This document shows positions 3,654 through 64,000 of a stretch of DNA of 64,000 nt, piece by piece. Numbering within the stretch: position 1 is the stretch's first letter; the number at the start of each line of letters is the position of its first letter. A program made the translations under genes and the position numbers. The notes beneath the pieces were generated by a model. That model searched no databases, was not told the DNA's origin, and worked only from the letters and a program-made list of their open reading frames with translations. This stretch comes from Escherichia coli (GTDB taxonomy: Bacteria; Pseudomonadota; Gammaproteobacteria; Enterobacterales; Enterobacteriaceae): assembly GCF_036507355.1 (NCBI RefSeq), contig NZ_AP027877.1; one strand, given 5' to 3'.

Positions 3654-3821
3654 CAATTGCTGCTTAAGATCATTATTGTGGATTTCTTTCACGATGTTTA
3701 TCCGCTATGAGATTTCTCATATTTAGCATACGTACGCTGTTGTTAAGATTCAATCATCGGCCCGGTCGAATTTTCTTTGCTGTAGAAAAAATAACGCAAC
3801 TGGAAACAGAGGAAATAAACA

Positions 3822-4763
3822 ATGGAAAAGAGAAAAATTATTCTGGATTGTGATCCGGGTCATGATGATGCTATTGCAATGATGATGGCAGCGAAACATC
3901 CGGCAATAGATTTATTAGGCATCACTATTGTAGCGGGTAATCAGACGCTTGATAAAACATTAATTAATGGCCTGAATGTTTGCCAGAAACTGGAGATTAA
4001 TGTTCCGGTTTATGCGGGGATGCCGCAACCCATTATGCGTCAACAAATCGTTGCCGATAATATTCACGGTGAAACCGGACTGGATGGCCCGGTATTCGAG
4101 CCGCTGACCCGCCAGGCAGAAAGTACCCACGCGGTGAAATACATCATTGATACCCTGATGGCAAGCGATGGCGATATCACTCTGGTGCCGGTTGGTCCGT
4201 TGTCAAATATCGCGGTGGCAATGCGTATGCAATCCGCAATCCTGCCCAAAATCCGTGAAATTGTGCTAATGGGCGGCGCTTACGGTACAGGCAACTTCAC
4301 GCCATCTGCCGAGTTCAACATCTTTGCTGACCCGGAAGCCGCACGCGTGGTGTTCACCTCCGGCGTTCCATTAGTGATGATGGGCCTCGATCTTACCAAC
4401 CAGACCGTTTGCACCCCGGACGTAATTGTTCGGATGGAAAGGGCAGGCGGCCCTGCCGGAGAGCTATTCAGCGACATCATGAACTTCACTCTCAAAACGC
4501 AGTTCGAAAACTACGGCCTGGCTGGCGGCCCGGTGCACGACGCCACCTGCATCGGTTATCTGATTAACCCTGATGGCATTAAAACCCAGGAGATGTACGT
4601 CGAAGTGGACGTCAACAGTGGCCCTTGCTATGGGCGTACCGTCTGCGACGAGCTGGGCGTTCTTGGCAAGCCCGCTAATACCAAAGTCGGCATCACTATT
4701 GATACCGACTGGTTCTGGGGCTTAGTCGAAGAGTGCGTGCGCGGCTACATCAAAACCCATTAA
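3822..4763 (+). CDS. rihB: pyrimidine-specific ribonucleoside hydrolase
   Basis: 313-aa ORF beginning [17 protein letters not shown] (nucleoside hydrolase DxDxxxDD aspartate motif). Confidence 0.9.
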
Positions 4764-10997: not shown

Positions 10998-11201
10998 GTT
11001 GCTGTACAAGAACATGCTGGTGCTGTGTCGATTTCGTGACGCAGCGCCCTCAGCATGCATTCGCCAGAAAAGAGATTGGCTGCTTTACTTATAATCCCTG
11101 GGCGATCATGAAGGTGTCTTATAACCGTGTATTTCTGCCGGAAGGATTGCCAATCGTCTGCTACAATCGCGCCTCATTTTTTAGATGGATAGCATTTTTG
11201 T

Positions 11202-12671
11202 ATGGTTTCCGAAACTAAAACCACAGAAGCGCCGGGCTTACGCCGTGAATTAAAGGCGCGTCACCTGACGATGATTGCCATTGGCGGTTCCATCGGTACA
11301 GGTCTTTTTGTTGCCTCTGGCGCAACGATTTCTCAGGCAGGTCCGGGCGGGGCATTGCTCTCGTATATGCTGATTGGCCTGATGGTTTACTTCCTGATGA
11401 CCAGTCTCGGTGAACTGGCTGCATATATGCCGGTTTCCGGTTCGTTTGCCACTTACGGTCAGAACTATGTTGAAGAGGGCTTTGGCTTCGCGCTGGGCTG
11501 GAACTACTGGTACAACTGGGCGGTGACTATTGCCGTTGACCTGGTTGCAGCTCAGCTGGTCATGAGCTGGTGGTTCCCGGATACACCGGGCTGGATCTGG
11601 AGTGCGTTGTTCCTCGGCGTTATCTTCCTGCTGAACTACATCTCTGTTCGCGGCTTTGGTGAAGCGGAATACTGGTTCTCACTGATCAAAGTCACGACAG
11701 TTATTGTCTTTATCATCGTTGGCGTGCTGATGATTATCGGTATCTTCAAAGGCGCGCAGCCTGCGGGCTGGAGCAACTGGACAATCGGCGAAGCGCCGTT
11801 TGCTGGTGGTTTTGCGGCGATGATCGGCGTAGCTATGATTGTCGGCTTCTCTTTCCAGGGAACCGAGCTGATCGGTATTGCTGCAGGCGAGTCCGAAGAT
11901 CCGGCGAAAAACATTCCACGCGCGGTACGTCAGGTGTTCTGGCGAATCCTGTTGTTCTATGTGTTCGCGATCCTGATTATCAGCCTGATTATTCCGTACA
12001 CCGATCCGAGCCTGCTGCGTAACGATGTTAAAGACATCAGCGTTAGTCCGTTCACCCTGGTGTTCCAGCACGCGGGTCTGCTCTCTGCGGCGGCGGTGAT
12101 GAACGCAGTTATTCTGACGGCGGTGCTGTCAGCGGGTAACTCCGGTATGTATGCGTCTACTCGTATGCTGTATACCCTGGCGTGTGACGGTAAAGCGCCG
12201 CGCATTTTCGCTAAACTGTCGCGTGGTGGCGTGCCGCGTAATGCGCTGTATGCGACGACGGTGATTGCCGGTCTGTGCTTCCTGACCTCCATGTTTGGCA
12301 ACCAGACGGTATACCTGTGGCTGCTGAACACCTCCGGGATGACCGGTTTTATCGCCTGGCTGGGGATTGCCATTAGCCACTATCGCTTCCGTCGCGGTTA
12401 CGTATTGCAGGGACACGACATTAACGATCTGCCGTACCGTTCAGGTTTCTTCCCACTGGGTCCGATCTTCGCATTCATTCTGTGTCTGATTATCACTTTG
12501 GGCCAGAACTACGAAGCATTCCTGAAAGATACCATTGACTGGGGCGGCGTAGCGGCAACGTATATTGGTATCCCGCTGTTCCTGATTATTTGGTTCGGCT
12601 ACAAGCTGATTAAAGGAACCCACTTCGTACGCTACAGCGAAATGAAGTTCCCGCAGAACGATAAGAAATAA
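11202..12671 (+). CDS. lysP: lysine-specific permease (APC family)
   Basis: 489-aa ORF MVSETKTTEAPGLRRELKARHLTMIAIGG...; amino-acid permease signature. Confidence 0.95.
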   Translation: MVSETKTTEAPGLRRELKARHLTMIAIGGSIGTGLFVASGATISQAGPGGALLSYMLIGLMVYFLMTSLGELAAYMPVSGSFATYGQNYVEEGFGFALGWNYWYNWAVTIAVDLVAAQLVMSWWFPDTPGWIWSALFLGVIFLLNYISVRGFGEAEYWFSLIKVTTVIVFIIVGVLMIIGIFKGAQPAGWSNWTIGEAPFAGGFAAMIGVAMIVGFSFQGTELIGIAAGESEDPAKNIPRAVRQVFWRILLFYVFAILIISLIIPYTDPSLLRNDVKDISVSPFTLVFQHAGLLSAAAVMNAVILTAVLSAGNSGMYASTRMLYTLACDGKAPRIFAKLSRGGVPRNALYATTVIAGLCFLTSMFGNQTVYLWLLNTSGMTGFIAWLGIAISHYRFRRGYVLQGHDINDLPYRSGFFPLGPIFAFILCLIITLGQNYEAFLKDTIDWGGVAATYIGIPLFLIIWFGYKLIKGTHFVRYSEMKFPQNDKK

Positions 12672-12690
12672 GTTTCTCCCTTCCTTGCTA

Positions 12691-12716
12691 AGCCCTCTCA
12701 ACCGAGAGGGCTTATT
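12691..12716 (+). terminator. hairpin terminator downstream of lysP
   Basis: Inverted repeat AGCCCTCTC-aacc-GAGAGGGCT followed by T-containing tract. Confidence 0.5.
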
Positions 12717-12768
12717 CAATTCCATTTCCCTGACAAATCATGTGGATATAAAATTTAACATTTGGATT

Positions 12769-12794
12769 GATAATTGTTATCGTTTGCATTATCG
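12769..12794. promoter_or_regulatory. Fur-box-like sequence in cirA promoter
   Basis: GATAATTGTTATCGTTTGCATTATC resembles Fur consensus GATAATGATAATCATTATC; cirA is a classical iron-repressed gene. Confidence 0.45.
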
Positions 12795-12962
12795 TTACGC
12801 CGCAATCAAAAAAGGCTGACAAATCAGAGGCTGGTCCGGTTTTCTGGGATGATCACCTGCATACAAATAAGTCCACCGCGATGCTGCCGTACGCAAGGGG
12901 ACGTGAAGAAGATGTGAGCGATAACCCATTTTATTTTCGTAGTTACCTCATGGAGATATGGA

Positions 12963-54869: not shown

Positions 54870-56870
54870 TCATCCTTGTTGCTGAAGCATGGGGAATAAT
54901 TGTTCGCAAAGCAAAACACCGTTATTCATTGCTTCTACCCGTGCCCCGCTTTCTGTATTACGAAATTGTCCCAACACATGTGCCAGCCGATAAAAACCCA
55001 CCGCGGTGAGGTCATTCGCCAGCAATTCTGCCTGACTAATAGCGCTCTGTTCCTGATAGCGCCAGCCGTTATGGAGCAGCTGAATAAGTAACGCCTGGCA
55101 GCGTATCAGCAACTGATGAGCAGTAGACTGCACAGGCAAAACGCTGGCAGAAGGTAGCGGTGCCACAGGCGTAGTTTCTGCGTCCAGCGCCCAGGCACGA
55201 GTCTTTGTCATCATTACCTGTGGTTCCAGTGTCAATTGCCCATCAACAAAACTGACAAAGCCAGAAACCAGACACACGGGGTCGTCTGTTTGTTGCAAAA
55301 GCGCCGCCATGCGTTCAACGGCATAAGGCGCGCTGGCTGAGGCTGGCAGTGATAACGTCAGCAGATTATCTTCACCTTCGCCGCTGATTACCTGCGCATC
55401 CAGCGTCTGGCGGCTGCTATCCCAACCGAGCGAAATACACTCAGCGACCGGCAGAATAAATAAGTTATCGACCTGATTAAGAGGCCGTATGCAGGCGGGG
55501 GGACGCTGGCGTAAATATTCCCGCAAAGCCACAATGCCCGGCTGGCGTAACGGCGCGCTCAACATTCGCCAGGCATCAGGCGACAGCGGCACAACGCTGC
55601 TTAAGCGGTTGCGGGTAGCTAACAGCAGCTCGCCATCGGCACTGCGTTTTGCTGCTTGTGAAACAATTTGCCCACCCGCCAGTGCGCCAGCCTGAAAACT
55701 AAACAGCCGACGCGTAGCTGCCGGTGAGTTTTCCTGTTCACTTCGCGGCCAACTGCGCGAAAGGTGCAAAATACTGCCGGTGTCGGGATCGGTAAACCAG
55801 ATGCGTAAACCATAATGCTCAATATCCTGCCAGCAACGCATACCTAAAGACACCAGCCGCAGATGATCAAGCTTTGCTTCTCCGGCAATGCCAGAGCCAA
55901 CGACCGTGCGCCACGGCACAGGAGGAACTTCACCAACACTGTCGCGCCGGGCCATCTCTTGTGCGCAATTTAATCGACTGTTTAATGCCGCAAGCTGACG
56001 TAAGCATTCTCCGGCATGATAGTGGCTGGCGCGAGTGTGGAAGGCATCAACGCTTGCCCGTAGCTGTCGTAGTGATTCACTCACCCATCGCCAGTTGCAG
56101 CGTTCCGCTGCTTGCTGCGCGCGGCTGAAAGCGGCCTCGTAGTGAATAAGCGGCTGGCTGATGCCGCCAAACCATAATGCCTGGCTTAATTGCTGAACAT
56201 ATTGACGACACGTTTGGCCTTCTTCGCTGGCAAACGGGTCGTCAGATGATGTGACGTGTTCGCTGCGCATCTGCCAGATTAAATGAGTAAATTCCGCTTG
56301 CTGAGTTTTGGCCTCGACGAAGGCCTGCACAGCCAGTACGACATGTTCGCAAAGTGTGCCTTCAATACAATCACAACGGGCGAAACGAATGCTGCTACGG
56401 GAATAAAAACGCACATCGCTCATCGGTAAGCGGGCAGAGGGAATTTCGCCCGGCGTACAGAACAACTCAATGGTGATGCCTTTAGCGACCAGCGCCTGCG
56501 CGCGTTTGCGGGTGGCATCGGGCAGGGTAGCCAGTTCTTCCAGCCAGATTGCCGGATCCCACTCTTCTTCTTTTTCTGTGGGCTGGACGGTGGCACAAAG
56601 TCGTTGATAACTTAACACCAGCATCACGCGATGACGGCACATGCCGCTGGCCCCGCAGCTGCACTGAGCCTCTTTCAGTGCCTGGCCGTTCGCCAGCTGG
56701 GTACGGACACCGTCACTGAAGGTGGCGATTAAAGCGCCGTTCTCATGGCTGATCTCCGGGACGTTGCCATTTTCCAGTTCCTTAAGACTGCGCTTAACAA
56801 AACCGGCATTGCTTAACGCTGTCAGGGCCTGCGGTGTCAGTTCTAATAATTCCGGACGTAGTGAATTCAT
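54870..56870 (-). CDS. yehQ: SWIM zinc-finger domain protein, last gene of the yehLMPQ operon
   Basis: ORF 54870..56894; start placed at Met9 where ATG overlaps the yehP stop (ATGA); two CxC-Xn-CxH motifs (CSCGASGMCRH; CDCIEGTLCEH). Start uncertain. Confidence 0.75.
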   Translation of the reverse strand: MNSLRPELLELTPQALTALSNAGFVKRSLKELENGNVPEISHENGALIATFSDGVRTQLANGQALKEAQCSCGASGMCRHRVMLVLSYQRLCATVQPTEKEEEWDPAIWLEELATLPDATRKRAQALVAKGITIELFCTPGEIPSARLPMSDVRFYSRSSIRFARCDCIEGTLCEHVVLAVQAFVEAKTQQAEFTHLIWQMRSEHVTSSDDPFASEEGQTCRQYVQQLSQALWFGGISQPLIHYEAAFSRAQQAAERCNWRWVSESLRQLRASVDAFHTRASHYHAGECLRQLAALNSRLNCAQEMARRDSVGEVPPVPWRTVVGSGIAGEAKLDHLRLVSLGMRCWQDIEHYGLRIWFTDPDTGSILHLSRSWPRSEQENSPAATRRLFSFQAGALAGGQIVSQAAKRSADGELLLATRNRLSSVVPLSPDAWRMLSAPLRQPGIVALREYLRQRPPACIRPLNQVDNLFILPVAECISLGWDSSRQTLDAQVISGEGEDNLLTLSLPASASAPYAVERMAALLQQTDDPVCLVSGFVSFVDGQLTLEPQVMMTKTRAWALDAETTPVAPLPSASVLPVQSTAHQLLIRCQALLIQLLHNGWRYQEQSAISQAELLANDLTAVGFYRLAHVLGQFRNTESGARVEAMNNGVLLCEQLFPMLQQQG

Positions 56871-58003
56871 GACTGAAGATTCTCCGCAAGCCATGATGCC
56901 AGCTCGCCCGGTGTCATGGCGGCTATTTGTGCGCCGACATTTACCAGCGCCTGGGCCGTATCGTGGTCATAGCAAGGTGTTGCGGTGCTATCGAGCGCCG
57001 CCAGTCCCAGCACTTTGATGCCGCTCTGGACACACTTTTTCACCTGATGCGTCAGTAATGATGATGAACCCCCTTCGTAAAAATCGCTCACGAGGATAAT
57101 GACGCTTTTCGCTGGTTGTTCAATAAGTTGCCGACCATACTCCACGGCACTGGCGATATTGGTTCCGCCGCCTAATTGCACTTTCATTAATAACTCTACC
57201 GAATCGGCAACGTCTGCCGTGAGATCAACCACACTGGTGTCAAAAGCGACCAGATGGGTACGAATGCCGGGTAACTGCCATAAACAGGCCGCCATCACCG
57301 CAGAGTGGATCACCGAATCGACCATCGAGCCGCTTTGATCAACCAGTAAGACCAGTTGCCATTGTTCGCTTTGGCGTTTAATGCGGCTGTTAAAGCGGGG
57401 GGATTCGATATACAACTTGCCGTGTTGTGGGTGCCAGTGTTGCAGGTTGGCGCGCAGAGTACTTTTGAAATCAAAGTTTCGCGCCAGTGGAATAAATGAG
57501 CGGCGACGGCGATCGCGGACACCAGAAAAAGCCTGACGAACTTCCTTTGCCAGTCGAGCCATAATTTCTTCAACAACCTGGCGCACTATCCGGCGGGCGG
57601 CAGCCAGTACTTCGGGATTCATCAGATGTTTGGTGTGCAAAACGGCGCGTAGCAGGCTTTCAGACGGTTGCATACGTTCCAGCACGTCGAGATTCGTCAC
57701 CACATCTTCAATGCCATAGCGCAGTACGGCATCGCTTTCCAGCCGCTCAATCACCTGTTGCGGAAACAGCGTGTGAATACTGTTGATCCACTCAGGGGTG
57801 GTGAGATTTGAGCCACCTAATCCACCAGAGCGTTCACCACGCTGGAGCCGTTCAGGATCGCGCCCATACAGCCACTCCAGCGCGTGGTCTATCTGCCGGG
57901 CGTTGTCATCCAGCCCACAAAGCGTCGTTTCTGCCGCTTCGCCAAGAATTAATCGCCAGCGTTGTAGCTCACGGGTGGTCAGAAGATCGTTCAGTTCAGA
58001 CAT
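56867..58003 (-). CDS. yehP: von Willebrand factor A (VWA) domain protein
   Basis: ORF 56867..58231 trimmed to MSELNDLLTTRELQ... (378 aa); MIDAS motif DQSGSM in a hydrophobic beta-strand context (LVLLVDQSGSMVDS); start overlaps yehM 3' end by 8 nt. Confidence 0.8.
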   Translation of the reverse strand: MSELNDLLTTRELQRWRLILGEAAETTLCGLDDNARQIDHALEWLYGRDPERLQRGERSGGLGGSNLTTPEWINSIHTLFPQQVIERLESDAVLRYGIEDVVTNLDVLERMQPSESLLRAVLHTKHLMNPEVLAAARRIVRQVVEEIMARLAKEVRQAFSGVRDRRRRSFIPLARNFDFKSTLRANLQHWHPQHGKLYIESPRFNSRIKRQSEQWQLVLLVDQSGSMVDSVIHSAVMAACLWQLPGIRTHLVAFDTSVVDLTADVADSVELLMKVQLGGGTNIASAVEYGRQLIEQPAKSVIILVSDFYEGGSSSLLTHQVKKCVQSGIKVLGLAALDSTATPCYDHDTAQALVNVGAQIAAMTPGELASWLAENLQS

Positions 58004-60275
58004 GGAAAACTCCCCAGTTTTGCAGCGATGCCAGTGCCTGCTGTTCGAGTTGTTGATGATGTGCAATGGCTTGTGGTGGGCAATGCAACGGCATTTGCAG
58101 CGCCGAAACGGGAAGTTGCGCCAGTTGATAATGTTCAAGCACCTGATGCGCCAGCGTCCCGCGTTCTCGTGGTGGTAGCCAGGCCATCGCCGCGCGTAAA
58201 TCGGGCAGGGCATTGATAAAATCGGCATCACTTAGTTGATTTAAATGACTGCTGAAACCGGCGATAAATGCCGGCTGACAGGCCAGTTGATGGCGGGCCA
58301 GCGCCAGCAAACCGTGCAGCGCTTCGCTGGATTGTGCCGGGGATAACTGCGCCAGCATCGTCAGCGCCGCTTCGGCACTAGCGTTGGGATGTTCCAGACG
58401 CATCAGTGCGCCAAGAGCCGCGCCGCGATCCAGCGCCGGGGCATGATTCGCATGACTGCGGCGCTCCAGTAAGGCTACCGCCGCAGAAAGCGAAACGCCG
58501 GATAAATTAACGCCGCTATGTAGATCGCGCAGAATATGGCAAAGCGCTTGCCAGCTATGCAGGTGAGCGTGAAACTCCTTTTCATCCGGTCTGCCGTTAG
58601 ATTCACACAGCCACAGCGTGCGATCGATAGCCGCGCATAACGTCGTCTGTAATATCTGCGCGCCTTGCATACCGCTGATTTCATCCAGCCGCCATAAGGC
58701 ATATAGCACTTCCAGCGCCTGGCCCATTTCGGCAAATTGATTTTCCTGGGCTATTAATAATGTGAGTTGTTCCAGTAATTGTTGACTGAAGGACGCCAGA
58801 CCCGCTAACGCTGCCTGGCTAAGACATGTGGTGATACTGCCGATTCCACCCGCGTCCAGCATATCGGCTTCTAATTTATGGCGTGCGGCTTCCTGGAGTG
58901 TGGCACCAAAGCAGGCGGCCTCAATCAATGCCGCATGCTGGCTAAGCGGGCGGGTTAATTTCCAGCGTTCTTCACCATTGCCTGCAAGTGTCAGTGTACT
59001 TCCCTGCTGGCGTACAATCCCTGGGATCTCCAGTATTGCCAGCCGATGTAACACCTGACTTTGCGCTAGTCCATTGGGGTTAAAGCGATTTAAGGTAAGC
59101 TCCGCCGGAAGAGAGATTGTGGTACGTTCCAGTTCGCAGGTGACATCTTTTGGCAGAGGCGGTTGTGGCGTGGAGGGGGCAAGTTTACCGAATCCGTCAC
59201 CCGCTAATGTGTCTATCAACGTTAGCAGAATCGGATCGGTGTCGGGATGAATAACTCCGCGATAACTCCACGGCAACGGCGCATTCAGGGCTTCTTTAAT
59301 CAGCGAGCCTGCTATGGCATCCAGCCAGTCAGTGCGTAACGGTAGTTTATGTCCGCGCAACTGTGCCAGCGCCATCGCATGCAGATGAGCGGCAGCCATA
59401 TCCGCGGTCGAAGCAGGCAAGTGGTGTTGGCGCAAACGGGTAAGAACCGTTTTTAGCAGTTGTTCTCCCGCCTGCTGTAAGCCCCACTGCCAGCACCAGC
59501 TTTGCCAGACCGGGGCAGGCATTCCGGAAAGGTATCCTGCCAGCACATCAAGGCGCTTTTCACTGTAGGGTGTGAGATAACAACCTGTAACGGCATCTGC
59601 CAGCGACGGCAATTCTGGCGTGTTAATTTCCTGCGGACATTCGCGCCACATTTTTGCCAGTGCCGGAGCGTGCCAGCCACCGCAGACAACTAACACGTCG
59701 CCATTATTTTGCTGCATCGCCCATCCAATCCAGCGGGCCATAAAGGCTTCGCGCTGACGATTGAGTGCATCTCCGGGGGAGTCGCCCCGCAGTTGGGCAA
59801 AATAGTGCGCCAGCGCAGAGGGTAATGCAGTTTGCTGGCTTTCATCTTCGAACAAGTGATCCCACAGGGTATCGCTGTTATCCATGCGGGTGGCACGCAG
59901 CAGTAAGGCCTGGCTTTCATCTTGCGTATCAGGCGAATCGTCCTCTTCTTCACTCTGTGCCCAGCAAGGCAAATCGATGAAGTAAGTTTGTGCCTGAATA
60001 CGACGTGCGGCTTGTAGCGCCTGCCACTCCGGCGAAAATTCAGCAAATGGCGTCCAGGCACCGCGCCCGGGGGCCGTACCGTCCTGATACTGGCAATAAC
60101 TGTAAATAGCTACCGGAAGCTGGTGGGCTAAAAACAGTTCGTCTACCAGGTCATTAAAATCAGCCGGGCCTTCAATCAACACGTATCGTGGCCGCTGGCT
60201 TTCGATTAACGATTTCACCAGCCGGGCGCAGGCCGGGCTATGATGCCGGATGCCGACAATTAACGGCTCGCTCAT
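57996..60275 (-). CDS. yehM: large protein of unknown function (DUF5682-like)
   Basis: ORF 57996..60449 trimmed to MSEPLIVGIRHHSPACARLV... (759 aa); no catalytic motif recognised by eye. Confidence 0.8.
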   Translation of the reverse strand: MSEPLIVGIRHHSPACARLVKSLIESQRPRYVLIEGPADFNDLVDELFLAHQLPVAIYSYCQYQDGTAPGRGAWTPFAEFSPEWQALQAARRIQAQTYFIDLPCWAQSEEEDDSPDTQDESQALLLRATRMDNSDTLWDHLFEDESQQTALPSALAHYFAQLRGDSPGDALNRQREAFMARWIGWAMQQNNGDVLVVCGGWHAPALAKMWRECPQEINTPELPSLADAVTGCYLTPYSEKRLDVLAGYLSGMPAPVWQSWCWQWGLQQAGEQLLKTVLTRLRQHHLPASTADMAAAHLHAMALAQLRGHKLPLRTDWLDAIAGSLIKEALNAPLPWSYRGVIHPDTDPILLTLIDTLAGDGFGKLAPSTPQPPLPKDVTCELERTTISLPAELTLNRFNPNGLAQSQVLHRLAILEIPGIVRQQGSTLTLAGNGEERWKLTRPLSQHAALIEAACFGATLQEAARHKLEADMLDAGGIGSITTCLSQAALAGLASFSQQLLEQLTLLIAQENQFAEMGQALEVLYALWRLDEISGMQGAQILQTTLCAAIDRTLWLCESNGRPDEKEFHAHLHSWQALCHILRDLHSGVNLSGVSLSAAVALLERRSHANHAPALDRGAALGALMRLEHPNASAEAALTMLAQLSPAQSSEALHGLLALARHQLACQPAFIAGFSSHLNQLSDADFINALPDLRAAMAWLPPRERGTLAHQVLEHYQLAQLPVSALQMPLHCPPQAIAHHQQLEQQALASLQNWGVFHV

Positions 60276-60285
60276 GCATCTTTCC

Positions 60286-61374
60286 TCACGGCAGGCGGTG
60301 ACGGGCTTGATAATAAGCCTGCCAGTGAGCTTCTTTATGTGTGGCGACACGCTGTTCGAAGTAACGGCGCAGACGAGCGCGATCTTCTTCGTTATCTTTG
60401 ACGATGGTTCCGGCAATACAGTCCACCAGGTCGGCAGGCTCCCCCGCACGATTCGCTAAAAACCAGGCGCGGACGCCCACAGCGTGAGCCACATTCACGG
60501 CTTCAGCGGTGGACATAATTGCCGTCAGTGTATCCATTGACGTTTTCTTTTCGCCGTTGGCACGCAGATCGCGGAAGGTGCGGACCAGTAACTCCAGTAC
60601 CGCGTCAGGCACTTTATGCGGAATACCGCTATGGGCCAGCAAACGCGCCGAAGCACTGGCGACAAGCTCCAGCTCCTGGGCGAAATCCATAATCGGAAAG
60701 ACAGTTTCAAAATCGAAGCGACGCTTTAGCGCAGCACTCATTTCATTGACGCCGCGATCGCGGGTATTGTCAGTGGCAATAATATTAAAGCCTTCTCGCG
60801 CATAGAGCTGACTGGCTTCACCAGTGAGTTCCGGCACCGTCATCACCCTGTCAGAAAGCATACCTAACAGACAGTCTTGCACTTCCAGCGGTGTACGCGT
60901 TATCTCTTCAAAACGGACGATTTTGCCGTCGCGCATTCCCTGGTAAAGCGGGGCTGGGACCAGCGCTTCCGTTGATGGACCATGATTGATAAGCAGGGCG
61001 TAGTTCCAGCCGTACTTGATTTGATCTTCGGTAGTAGATGCGCCGTCCTGGATGGTTAACCCGGCATCGCCGCTAATAGCGGTTGCCAGTAATTCAGACA
61101 GGAGAGATTTTGCGGTGCCAGATTCCCCCACCAACATCAAACCGCGTCCGGTGGCAAGAGTGACTAACATACGTTCGACAGCGGAGGGACTAATCACCAC
61201 TTTACGGCTAATATTTTGCGCGCTATCGCCAAGGATAAAAGCACGGGCCGCAGGCAAACTTAACTGCCAACCGGGCGGGCAAGGTGCGTTATCATTTTGT
61301 TTTAATTTTGCCAGTTCATCGGCGTATAACACAGCAGCAGGCGGACGCTGCAGATGATTATTCTGCGGTGACAT
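60286..61374 (-). CDS. yehL: MoxR-like AAA+ ATPase
   Basis: ORF 60286..61440 trimmed to MSPQNNHLQRPPAAVLYADE... (362 aa); Walker A GESGTAKS at nt 61105..61128; AAA+ core. Confidence 0.85.
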   Translation of the reverse strand: MSPQNNHLQRPPAAVLYADELAKLKQNDNAPCPPGWQLSLPAARAFILGDSAQNISRKVVISPSAVERMLVTLATGRGLMLVGESGTAKSLLSELLATAISGDAGLTIQDGASTTEDQIKYGWNYALLINHGPSTEALVPAPLYQGMRDGKIVRFEEITRTPLEVQDCLLGMLSDRVMTVPELTGEASQLYAREGFNIIATDNTRDRGVNEMSAALKRRFDFETVFPIMDFAQELELVASASARLLAHSGIPHKVPDAVLELLVRTFRDLRANGEKKTSMDTLTAIMSTAEAVNVAHAVGVRAWFLANRAGEPADLVDCIAGTIVKDNEEDRARLRRYFEQRVATHKEAHWQAYYQARHRLP

Positions 61375-61484
61375 ATATTCATCCCTGAAATGTATTAATG
61401 AAATAAACGATATTTTACGTGCAATAAATGTTTGGCGCATTAGTTGTTTGAGCGAAAAATATCTGGAAAGCAGATCACAGTAAA

Positions 61485-61568
61485 TAAAAAAACCTGCTGG
61501 TGAGGCAGGTTCTTTTATTTACTATTTTCAGGCCTAACACCACAGCCTGTGCAACATCGTGTTCCAAC
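61485..61568 (-). ncRNA. orzO: candidate OrzO-like antitoxin sRNA of the zor/orz type I TA locus
   Basis: Minus-strand sigma70 promoter (-35 TTGCAA 61603..61598, 17-nt spacer, -10 TATAAT 61580..61575) precedes a region whose transcript would be complementary to the zorO 5' UTR (direct DNA repeat 61549..61573 vs 61715..61739), ending at a minus-strand hairpin plus U-tract (stem 61492..61510, A-run 61485..61491 on plus strand). Boundaries approximate. Confidence 0.45.
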
Positions 61569-61574
61569 GAACGA

Positions 61575-61625
61575 ATTATAACCACGGCTGGACCCCGTTG
61601 CAATTAAGATAATGAGATTTATAAT
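61575..61625. promoter_or_regulatory. back-to-back divergent promoters for zorO (+) and orzO (-) sharing one palindromic -35 hexamer
   Basis: Plus strand: TTGCAA (61598..61603), 16-nt spacer, TATAAT (61620..61625). Minus strand: the same self-complementary TTGCAA, 17-nt spacer, TATAAT (61580..61575). Predicted zorO TSS gives a ~174-nt 5' UTR. Confidence 0.45.
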
Positions 61626-61806
61626 CCAGACCGTTGGGACGTTGCGCCGGATCGGACCAATTTTAAGTCCTGGCTACCGGACGGGTGGTGCTGCAGGTGG
61701 TGCCCTGATCCGGAGTGCAACATCGTGGTCCAACATACGTAAACCAGTATCGACAGGCAGTGTAAGGGTAAGGTGCTGGTGTTGCGCTCCTTAATAAGGA
61801 GAGCGG

Positions 61807-61896
61807 ATGGACACGCTGACACAAAAGTTAACCGTGCTCATTGCTGTACTGGAGCTATTAGTAGCTCTGTTACGGTTGATTGATTTGTTGAAGTAA
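61807..61896 (+). CDS. zorO: type I toxin ZorO (29-aa hydrophobic membrane peptide)
   Basis: Read from sequence: AAGGAG RBS then ATG...MDTLTQKLTVLIAVLELLVALLRLIDLLK; matches recalled ZorO of enterohaemorrhagic E. coli; below track cutoff. Confidence 0.8.
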   Translation: MDTLTQKLTVLIAVLELLVALLRLIDLLK

Positions 61897-61919
61897 CGGG
61901 CAAATTGAAACGCATCTAA

Positions 61920-61942
61920 GGGGGAAAACCGCTTCCCCCTTT
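61920..61942 (+). terminator. rho-independent terminator of zorO
   Basis: GGGGGAA-aaccgc-TTCCCCC hairpin followed by TTT. Confidence 0.5.
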
Positions 61943-61950
61943 AATAAAGC

Positions 61951-62005
61951 TATACTCGTCATATTTCAAGTTGCATGTGCTGCGACTTGAATTATCTAGA
62001 GTATA
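61951..62005. repeat. short ERIC-like element (terminal arms only)
   Basis: TATACTCGTCATATTTCAAGTTGCATGTGCTGCG...GAATTATCTAGAGTATA matches the outer arms of the full ERIC at 25744..25869 but lacks the central core. Confidence 0.5.
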
Positions 62006-62323
62006 TTATTCTATTTCTTGGTTGAATATATTCTGTAGTTCACGATTAAAAATTGCTATTACAGTTTCAGGTGATTCACCTCGTAATTTCCGCTCATCAA
62101 TACACTCATCTCTTATATAAATCAACGCATCATTTATTAGCGGGTCAGCATCTTCTCGATCACGTTGATGAAATGTTGGATGTAGCCGGAATCGCTCCAG
62201 TCGATAGACGGAACCTGTAAATAATTCAGAGCATTTATGGATCTCAAGTCTGAAGGAAAACGGATCTTCAGGTACAGGGACCTCATAATCGTAAATAGCA
62301 ACTAGCTCTTTTTGCACGATCAT
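62006..62323 (-). CDS. yehK: small protein of unknown function
   Basis: 105-aa ORF MIVQKELVAIYDYEVPVPEDPFSF...; sits between yehI and the zorO insertion. Confidence 0.8.
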   Translation of the reverse strand: MIVQKELVAIYDYEVPVPEDPFSFRLEIHKCSELFTGSVYRLERFRLHPTFHQRDREDADPLINDALIYIRDECIDERKLRGESPETVIAIFNRELQNIFNQEIE

Positions 62324-62383: not shown

Positions 62384-64000
62384 TTAATGGAAAATGACGT
62401 CAGGTGCGCTTAACGCCTCACTCAAATCAAACACATCAAGTTCGGCAAAAGTGACGGATTTATTGTCACGGTACACTCGAAGAGAACGGAAGCTCATTAA
62501 CGCTTTGCTATCAACATTGTAGTGGTTAAAACCGGGTGAAAACTTAAGGACCAGCCGGTACTCGCCCAGGTCATAGACAAATGCGTCCTCATAGCCTGAC
62601 TCCCAGCCTTTGTATCGCATTCCCATAAGTTGCCCAACGGTAGCGGATTTACCTTCCCAGCGAGTCAGGCTGTTACTGGTTGACTCGTCAGGTGTGAGCA
62701 GCACCGTGCGGCGCGACAACTGGCGAAAAGGCGGCATAATTTCGTAATCGGCAAAAAGCTGTGCAAATTCACTGCGCATTTCTGCTGTCATTTCTAACGG
62801 GTGGGCAATGCCAATCAGAGCGTCCGCAGGCAGGTCAATTGGCTCATCTTGCGCATTGCAGAACTCCCCCTCTGCGGCCACACGAAAGGCGTTGAGTAAA
62901 CAACGCGGTTCATTTGCCGGATAAACCCCCCATATTAATCGCTGGGTAACCAGACGGGTAAAGGGATGATTAACAAACAGAGAATGAAAATCTGCCAGCG
63001 ACCAGCGTCGGGTGGTACGTAGGGCAGCTTCAAGACGCGGGAGCAGGTTTTTGCTCACCTGAGTAGCATCTTTTTTTAGCCCTTTTAGTCGGGCCAGTGC
63101 CTCGGGCGCTTTCAGTTGATCGTCATCGGCGCGCAACCGGGGAACGCTTTTCTGGTGAACGTTTTGCTGATCAAAGATAACCGGGTTGAGGTTTTCATCG
63201 AAGCGAACGGTAAACTGCCGGGGACCAAAATCAAAACTCAACGCCTGCGGATCATCAAGGCCCAGGGTTGGGACTAATCTGTCCGCTAGCTCTTCCTGGC
63301 TTAGCCCGCGATTTTCTGCGACCACCTGAAGAAATTCCGCCGCGTTATCACGTAAGGGGCGGGATTTAGCCCGTTGCGATATATGATGCAGCTGTATCAG
63401 CGCCATATCATTATTCATCAGGGTAAGGATGTTCAGGCCGCTGACAGCACGGGCAGATTTGCCTTCTTGTGGCCAGGCGAGGATCTGTGTCGTCAGATCC
63501 CGTGCCGTGCTTTCGTCACCAAAGAGACTTAACGCCAGAAATGCCCAGTTGTCTTTTGCGGGGGCACCAGCTTGTTGCCACGCAGTGAAGAGATCCCAGG
63601 CAAAAGCTGCCAGCGTTTGTGGCTGGCAGAACGTTTTCAGTTGTTCCAGCCCGCTATAAAAACGTCCCCCCTGGGTAAAGCGCAGCATTTCGCCGATAAT
63701 TTCCAGAGCGTCATCGGTAACAGTTTGATTATTAGTGATAAGGCGCGGCCTGGACCACATTTGCGGATGCCAGAAATCAGGGGCTTTTGGAATGCGTGCC
63801 GGGTAAATCTCTATTGGACTCTGTTTAAGTAATTGTTCCAGGGCAGGCCATAGATCTGTACGCTGCCAACGATTGGCTACAGTTTGTAGCAATTCGCCAT
63901 GCCCATGTTCGTAAAGTAAACGCAGGGCAAGTAATGCATCTTCGCTTTTATCGCTAGATTTGGTGAAGACAAGAGGGATAAGTGCAGTAGCCGTATGTTC
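62384..64000 (-). CDS. yehI: DUF4132-family large protein (partial; N-terminal part lies beyond the window end)
   Basis: Track ORF 62384..63892 (502 aa) is an internal-Met artefact; the frame remains open to the window end. Confidence 0.8.
   Translation of the reverse strand, partial: EHTATALIPLVFTKSSDKSEDALLALRLLYEHGHGELLQTVANRWQRTDLWPALEQLLKQSPIEIYPARIPKAPDFWHPQMWSRPRLITNNQTVTDDALEIIGEMLRFTQGGRFYSGLEQLKTFCQPQTLAAFAWDLFTAWQQAGAPAKDNWAFLALSLFGDESTARDLTTQILAWPQEGKSARAVSGLNILTLMNNDMALIQLHHISQRAKSRPLRDNAAEFLQVVAENRGLSQEELADRLVPTLGLDDPQALSFDFGPRQFTVRFDENLNPVIFDQQNVHQKSVPRLRADDDQLKAPEALARLKGLKKDATQVSKNLLPRLEAALRTTRRWSLADFHSLFVNHPFTRLVTQRLIWGVYPANEPRCLLNAFRVAAEGEFCNAQDEPIDLPADALIGIAHPLEMTAEMRSEFAQLFADYEIMPPFRQLSRRTVLLTPDESTSNSLTRWEGKSATVGQLMGMRYKGWESGYEDAFVYDLGEYRLVLKFSPGFNHYNVDSKALMSFRSLRVYRDNKSVTFAELDVFDLSEALSAPDVIFH

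Follow-up and report, generated by a model that had tools for sequence, protein, structure and literature searches.

Escherichia coli YehM (DUF5682) as a predicted TIKI/TraB-type domain with a helical scaffold in a conserved MoxR-VWA gene cassette

Proteins of the TraB/PrgY/GumN and TIKI type (PF01963; E. coli YbaP, human TIKI1/2 and TRABD) are mostly membrane-bound or extracellular and stand-alone, and the members of this superfamily that have been studied are Wnt proteases, pheromone regulators, antibiotic esterases and toxins. ChaN (PF04187), which is also counted to the Tiki superfamily, is a haem-binding lipoprotein and to our knowledge not known as a hydrolase. A different group of systems pairs a MoxR-type AAA+ ATPase with a VWA protein, as in the chaperones RavA-ViaA, CbbQ-CbbO, NorQ-NorD and CoxD-CoxE. 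E. coli has two MoxR ATPases: RavA, which has two decades of study behind it, and YehL, for whose system we know of no function. YehL gives its name to, and is the type member of, one of the seven MoxR subfamilies (PMC3893208). In the vWA-MoxR-VMAP/iSTAND ternary conflict systems, a MoxR ATPase and a CoxE-like vWA protein are joined by an obligatory third component (Kaur et al. 2020, PMC7159879; Yeh, TraB and Tiki are unmentioned there). Here, we analysed a 64,000-nucleotide window of E. coli DNA (contig NZ_AP027877.1, assembly GCF_036507355.1) and found that the protein encoded next to yehL, YehM, combines a predicted TIKI/TraB-type domain with a helical scaffold and is part of a gene cassette retained across bacterial phyla. 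The yehM gene, its DUF family and YehL as a named MoxR subfamily are already known; in the literature we found no description of the cassette, no TIKI/TraB placement of DUF5682 and no link between MoxR and TIKI/TraB proteins, while Pfam clan or InterPro records may already hold the fold link.

The yehM gene occupies positions 57996-60275 on the minus strand (2280 nt, 759 amino acids plus stop), exactly where the preliminary description of this DNA had located it. It starts with the ATG at 60275, which is preceded by GAGGAAAG, with the yehL stop codon TGA (60288-60286) 10 nt before, and it ends with the TGA at 57998-57996; RefSeq annotates the identical 2280-nt gene as yehM, a DUF5682 family protein. 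Mechanically, the open reading frame extends upstream to a GTG at 60449 (817 aa), a form that we rejected because of the 164-nt overlap with yehL that it would create and because homologues align starting at residues 1-6 of the 759-aa protein, i.e. they begin at the ATG. The position between the ATPase gene yehL and the VWA gene yehP was correctly recognised before, and so was the 8-nt overlap with yehP, whose ATG lies at 58003 (shared sequence ATGTCTGA). From this overlap a stoichiometric co-expression had been deduced; 8 nt argue for translational coupling and for no particular stoichiometry. YehM is indeed the largest protein within yehLMPQ (759 versus 362, 378 and 666 aa), though the protein of the upstream yehI is larger (1210 aa). 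An exhaustive HMMER search returned 2282 YehM-matching cluster representatives (E<=1e-3), and yehM is present in 5332 of 5426 complete E. coli genomes, its 5339 matches there being chromosomal in all but three cases, which confirms a real gene far beyond chance. The gene is 99.8% identical to that of E. coli A30, the closest genome, and the K-12 protein is 97% identical. A membrane-bound or secreted YehM was rejected, as neither YehM nor any other cassette protein has a hydrophobic segment; YehM is soluble and cytoplasmic. DUF5682 is mentioned in no paper that we found, and yehM appears only in gene lists, one H-NS regulon study and one Shigella deletion table.

YehM matches a single Pfam family, PF18934 (DUF5682), over residues 20-715, scoring 336.5 bits (cut-off 26; E 4.6e-100), and no family in the NCBIfam and PADLOC scans. 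We aligned 92 full-length homologues (28-64% identity) and later extended this alignment to 232-256 sequences. The invariant polar residues of the 92 sequences concentrate in the first 205 positions (R10, H11, E35, H51, E83, D101, R175 and H202), and all eight, together with G199 and R314, are 100% conserved in the extended set. The earlier statement that YehM has no recognisable motif does not hold, since it contains G-x-R-H-H-S-P (8-14), L-I-E-G-P (33-37), R-E-x-x-M (175-179) and G-G-x-H (199-202); a Bacillus mycoides homologue of 26% identity retains IRHHSPAC, LIEGP, SPE, FIDLP, RE..MA and GGFH. Judged by eye, these motifs correspond to what appears as the GxxH...E...R...GxxH pattern of TraB/TIKI proteins, with GSIH, VEAD and VGALH as the counterparts seen in YbaP. 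H11 (codon 60243-60245, on the minus strand like all codons below) is the His of the first GxxH (G8-I-R-H11), follows right after strand 1 and is His in 232/232 homologues, and it is likewise invariant in the alignments A1, A2 and A4. E35 (60171-60173), the Glu that ends strand 2 in L-I-E-G-P (236/236), is its candidate partner in a His-Glu pair of the kind defined for TIKI proteins (PMC6254334). The basic residue R175 (59751-59753; Arg in 246/246) belongs to R-E-A-F-M in the helix before the second GxxH strand, and H202 (59670-59672; His in 252/252) is the His of the second motif, G199-G-W-H202. The spacing from R175 to H202 is 27 residues, compared with 29 from R4001 to H4030 in the endopeptidase RRSP (PMC6254334). 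Two full-length homologues (P0027 and P0046) bear the name "4-aminobutyrate aminotransferase" in UniRef with no aminotransferase domain recorded; this identity was rejected for want of a supporting domain, and the name looks like a propagated misannotation.

An AlphaFold2 model of YehM, built from the 92-sequence alignment without templates, reached a predicted local distance difference test score (pLDDT) of 94.0 and a predicted template modelling score (pTM) of 0.91, and it falls into three parts, all encoded on the minus strand. Residues 1-245 (59541-60275) form an alpha/beta domain in which a central parallel beta-sheet is flanked by helices, the alpha+beta fold by which the superfamily is recognised (PMC6254334), and the motif residues are modelled at, or directly after, strand ends. 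Residues 246-444 (58944-59540) make up a helical middle part with a small beta unit and contain the invariant R282, R307, R314, G359 and G363, and residues 445-759 (57999-58943) form an all-helical alpha-solenoid akin to HEAT/ARM scaffolds, a probable protein-binding scaffold. Based on this model, residues 1-245 are predicted to be a divergent member of the TIKI/TraB/ChaN/erythromycin-esterase fold, with a similarity at the superfamily and fold level only. We scanned 56 homologues individually against Pfam, and besides DUF5682 the only recurring family was PF04187 (ChaN, "Tiki superfamily"), found in 12/56 with a best E of 2e-4, while PF01963 (TraB) was matched by 1/56 (E 0.0047); these matches cover residues ~150-228 and the last 40-110 profile positions, which is the R...GxxH segment. 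The preliminary description had seen no catalytic or binding motif, which is not supported for an enzyme-like domain with invariant motif residues, and its proposal of a scaffold or effector comes close to the evidence with the amendment that both may apply, the solenoid as scaffold and residues 1-245 as effector. Clear homology to a characterised housekeeping enzyme, the finding it had set against this proposal, was not encountered: the likeness is at fold level only, and the cassette is sporadic in bacteria and not a housekeeping one.

How does YehM differ from the characterised members of this fold? From the TraB/PrgY/GumN and TIKI proteins it is set apart by the lack of a significant sequence match, by its cytoplasmic location, by a 500-residue helical extension, by its membership in a MoxR-VWA cassette and by the additional invariant residues R10, H12, S13, H51, E83 and D101. 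The erythromycin esterases (EreC, Bcr135/136) and RRSP carry a Glu two positions before the first His, whereas this position is Ile or Val in YehM (Val in 86% of the family), so that YehM resembles the GxxH form of TraB/TIKI and not the E-x-H form of Ere/RRSP, whose substrates and domain contexts are also unrelated. With respect to ChaN, every match within the YehM family stayed under the Pfam cut-off.

Is the arrangement of yehM and its neighbours retained outside E. coli? A gene-order scan with one genome per species covered at least 562 loci, of which 80 were kept; these span Enterobacterales, Burkholderiales, Xanthomonadales, Myxococcota and Actinomycetota. The MoxR-type AAA+ ATPase gene yehL (60286-61374, minus strand; AAA_5, PF07728, E 7e-32) is the directly upstream partner in 76/76 loci with room for it. 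On the other side, yehP (56867-58003, minus strand; VWA_CoxE, PF05762, E 3e-71) is adjacent in 77/78, and its metal-ion-dependent adhesion site (MIDAS) motif DxSxS, D222-Q-S-G-S in the window, is kept in 75/77 aligned family homologues. Further downstream, yehQ (54870-56870, minus strand) overlaps yehP by the ATGA at 56870-56867, encodes a protein with two SWIM zinc-finger motifs (model pLDDT 90) and follows in 70/73 loci. The fifth conserved member is a DUF4132 gene, found upstream on the same strand in 66/73 loci; upstream of yehL, E. coli encodes YehK and then the DUF4132 proteins YehI and YehH, and the 3' part of yehI (62384-64000, minus strand) lies in the window and continues past its edge. 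A Bacillus mycoides megaplasmid carries the same five genes, in the same order and overlapping. Relative to the E. coli proteins, the 80 kept loci show median identities of 64.5% (YehL), 60% (YehP), 39% (YehM) and 32% (YehQ). Three representatives (P0172, P0231 and P0261) are DUF5682-VWA_CoxE fusions, and in one locus (L083, 7001-10540), which has neither a separate VWA gene nor an upstream DUF4132 gene, a YehM-YehP homologue fusion of 1179 aa is flanked by the AAA_5 and SWIM genes. A natural fusion that does without a separate VWA gene argues for a YehM-YehP complex, and a physical link between the two proteins is supported by these fusions together with the near-universal adjacency. For YehL itself, two observations may be added: its conservation is unusual for an accessory gene (minimum 59% identity between E. 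coli and Actinomycetota or Myxococcota), and its family has the Walker A motif GEPGTAKS, in which Ala takes the place of the Gly that usually precedes the Lys in AAA+ proteins, and the Walker B motif VRFEE.

With a MoxR-type AAA+ gene beside a MIDAS-bearing VWA gene, yehL and yehP are thus arranged like the genes of the MoxR AAA+/VWA chaperones. The Yeh cassette differs from these in three additional fixed partners, namely the hydrolase-like YehM, the SWIM protein and the DUF4132 protein, and in having no known linked client enzyme. It also resembles the vWA-MoxR-VMAP/iSTAND systems in its MoxR ATPase, CoxE-like vWA protein and third component, but YehM matches no VMAP or ternary-system Pfam family, the bpMoxR match of YehL is marginal (E 0.022), and the cassette is strongly conserved and without variable effector domains.

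We consider it fairly probable that YehM is both the hydrolase and the scaffold subunit in a MoxR-VWA machine; that it is catalytic, what kind of substrate it has, that it sits in a complex and that this complex is gated by ATP are all points that we infer. The proposed site in residues 1-245, comprising the H11-E35 pair, H202 and R175, would hydrolyse a peptide bond, possibly an ester bond, because YehM keeps candidates for the His-Glu pair, the second His and the Arg of the active superfamily members. The helical residues 246-759, ending in the alpha-solenoid, would dock partner proteins, and YehM would work as one subunit of the fixed cassette along with YehL, YehP, YehQ and, in most cases, a DUF4132 protein (YehI). 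If other MoxR-VWA pairs are a guide, the MIDAS site of YehP would bind the target or YehM itself, and the YehL ring, powered by ATP, would remodel the complex and thereby either hand a protein substrate to the YehM site or open this site. The main argument for a catalytic role is the invariance of catalytic-type residues across phyla.

Several results weigh against this assignment. No sequence method gave a significant TIKI link: the ChaN and TraB Pfam matches are sub-threshold with 16-17 bits against curated cut-offs of ~27, and the isolated domain of the window protein had no match at E<=10 to TraB_PrgY_gumN (PF01963), Cofac_haem_bdg (PF04187) or the erythromycin esterase Pfam model. In hhalign comparisons of the YehM profile with YbaP and with a profile of 105 YbaP homologues, the probability stayed below 1%, in part because the YbaP set is of low diversity (>=59% identity); the alignment set VVCGGWH of YehM on VVAVGALH of YbaP and is not significant. 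YehM profiles match no TIKI protein among the PDB sequences, where phmmer with YehM and searches with the full-length (A1) and N-terminal-domain (A4) profiles returned noise (OppA, ATP synthase b, designed TIM barrels), and Foldseek against the PDB found nothing at E<0.02, its best hit (E 0.023) being among alpha-solenoid matches only. The main weakness is that the catalytic role is a prediction from sequence and model, and the proposed placement of H11, E35, R175 and H202 in one pocket relies on sequence position and predicted secondary structure. Published experimental data on YehM were not found, only the gene lists and the H-NS regulon study. Moreover, the extra Glu of the 2His/2Glu site in Ere/RRSP is replaced by Ile/Val, and the fold does not guarantee an enzyme: ChaN, a TIKI-fold protein, binds haem, and PMT is a non-enzymatic TIKI-fold protein without the catalytic motif (PMC6254334).

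This last point leads to an alternative in which YehM is a non-catalytic adaptor whose TIKI-like domain merely serves as a binding module and which, together with YehP, links the ATPase ring to a client encoded elsewhere, like the large N-terminal regions of CbbO, NorD and ViaA. The DUF5682-VWA fusions reproduce the architecture of a large N-terminal region followed by a C-terminal VWA domain, the helical scaffold accounts for two thirds of YehM, and the characterised MoxR systems are chaperones or maturases (PMC3893208). Nevertheless, >230 homologues from several phyla all retain the His, Glu, Arg and His that define active TIKI enzymes, which a pure binding module hardly explains, and PMT, the non-enzymatic precedent, has lost the motif (PMC6254334); we regard the adaptor as unlikely, if reasonable. 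In a second alternative, the cassette would be a chelatase- or maturase-type machine for cofactors or metals (cf. CobN-CobS-CobT, BchH-I-D, CoxD-CoxE and NorQ-NorD), and YehM would hold a metal or tetrapyrrole in its His/Glu/Asp-rich site, as ChaN does with haem. The invariant R10, H11, H12, H51, E83 and D101 could serve as metal ligands, the recurring sub-threshold Pfam family is that of haem-binding ChaN, and YehP, a VWA_CoxE protein, weakly matches a model of a putative cobaltochelatase. YehL shares the AAA_5 type with CobS, the ATPase of the aerobic cobaltochelatase. Known MoxR-VWA systems insert metals (PMC7159879). Against this, the Pfam and NCBIfam scans gave no similarity of YehM to CobN or BchH, no client metalloenzyme gene is conserved next to the cassette in the loci examined, and SWIM and DUF4132 partners have no chelatase precedent, which makes a metal machine, to our mind, quite unlikely.

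Could the cassette instead belong to the NTP-dependent vWA-MoxR systems of conflict or defence, with YehM acting as their effector protease or as a processing enzyme, and with sensing done by the SWIM and DUF4132 proteins? Biochemically, such a role is compatible with a YehM that is a hydrolase and scaffold, and vWA-MoxR systems with a third component have been described as conflict systems (PMC7159879). The cassette is sporadic in bacteria, self-contained and set in varying neighbourhoods, a type I toxin-antitoxin locus adjoins it in the window, and the H-NS study reports increased expression of yehL and yehM in hns/stpA mutants. However, YehL, YehM, YehP and YehQ match zero PADLOC-DB 2.0 models and YehM matches no VMAP-type or ternary-system Pfam family (both at E<=0.1), and 98% of E. 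coli genomes have the cassette at a fixed site of the chromosome. Plasmids rarely carry the YehM family (38 of 72,556 records, most of them megaplasmids or chromosomes with a wrong label), phages hardly ever do (1 partial match), and YehL is 60-75% identical across phyla, unlike fast-evolving immune genes. A defence function therefore seems very unlikely.

The largest yehLMPQ protein has so far been annotated as a DUF alone, and the predicted fold together with four invariant candidate catalytic residues turns this annotation into a testable enzyme hypothesis. Because the cassette is strictly conserved in Gram-negative as well as Gram-positive phyla, what is learnt about it would be widely applicable, and if YehM is a hydrolase and scaffold subunit as proposed, the TIKI/TraB superfamily would gain a cytoplasmic branch that is coupled to an ATPase. 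Going further, we speculate that DUF4132-YehL-YehM-YehP-YehQ is a so far unrecognised, ATP-gated proteolytic switch: once the SWIM and DUF4132 proteins sense a signal, YehM, a latent protease of the TIKI type, would be licensed by the MoxR ring and the VWA adaptor to cut a specific cytoplasmic target. This specific scheme is a long shot; if true, YehM would be the first member of the TIKI protease superfamily that is cytoplasmic and under AAA+ control, and the last MoxR subfamily of E. coli without a characterised role would be explained.

Compared with A30 and K-12, this strain has six private amino-acid changes in YehL, YehM and YehP, all encoded on the minus strand: YehL P85S (61120-61122), which turns the Walker A motif GEPGTAKS into GESGTAKS, YehL G110D (61045-61047), YehL A202D (60769-60771), YehM R43L (60147-60149), YehP P268S (57200-57202) and YehP R347H (56963-56965). 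All six fall on invariant or nearly invariant positions in ~75-79 homologues from several phyla, a placement with a chance of ~7e-4 if changes are assumed to fall uniformly. By exact 81-nt matching, none of ~3,700-4,000 E. coli genomes had the P85S or the A202D allele, and at most 1 of 5,084 had R43L. The changes may indicate a cassette that is decaying in this strain, or they may be sequence-call errors. K-12 MG1655 (L085) has a GAG-to-TAG amber mutation in yehQ (11101-12945), which leaves 614 aa versus 666-667 in the window and A30, and its yehH (1-2270) is annotated as a pseudogene; the cassette is thus damaged in the standard laboratory strain. Genetic screens have been silent, maybe because of this damage in K-12 and, in the present strain, of the substitutions at invariant positions.

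The spacer between yehK and yehL (61375-62005) holds a zorO-orzO type I toxin-antitoxin locus. It consists of an OrzO-P antitoxin small RNA at 61486-61561 on the minus strand (Rfam RF02083, 99.9 bits) and an open reading frame for a ZorO-like hydrophobic peptide of 29 aa at 61807-61896 on the plus strand (MDTLTQKLTVLIAVLELLVALLRLIDLLK), and a back-to-back pair of promoter-like sites lies at 61575-61625. The zor-orz copy number varies: the window has one OrzO-P, while A30 (L001, 6663-7901) has two, 608 bp apart, and its spacer is 608 bp longer because of the second zor-orz copy. In K-12 the spacer (L085, 6291-6596) measures just 306 bp and is therefore too short for zorO-orzO. The adjoining yehK (62006-62323, minus strand) encodes 105 aa with no Pfam family, and among the 80 related loci a YehK homologue is found in E. 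coli A30 only. Together, yehK and the toxin-antitoxin unit split the DUF4132 gene from yehL, two genes that lie ~40-600 bp apart in other taxa.

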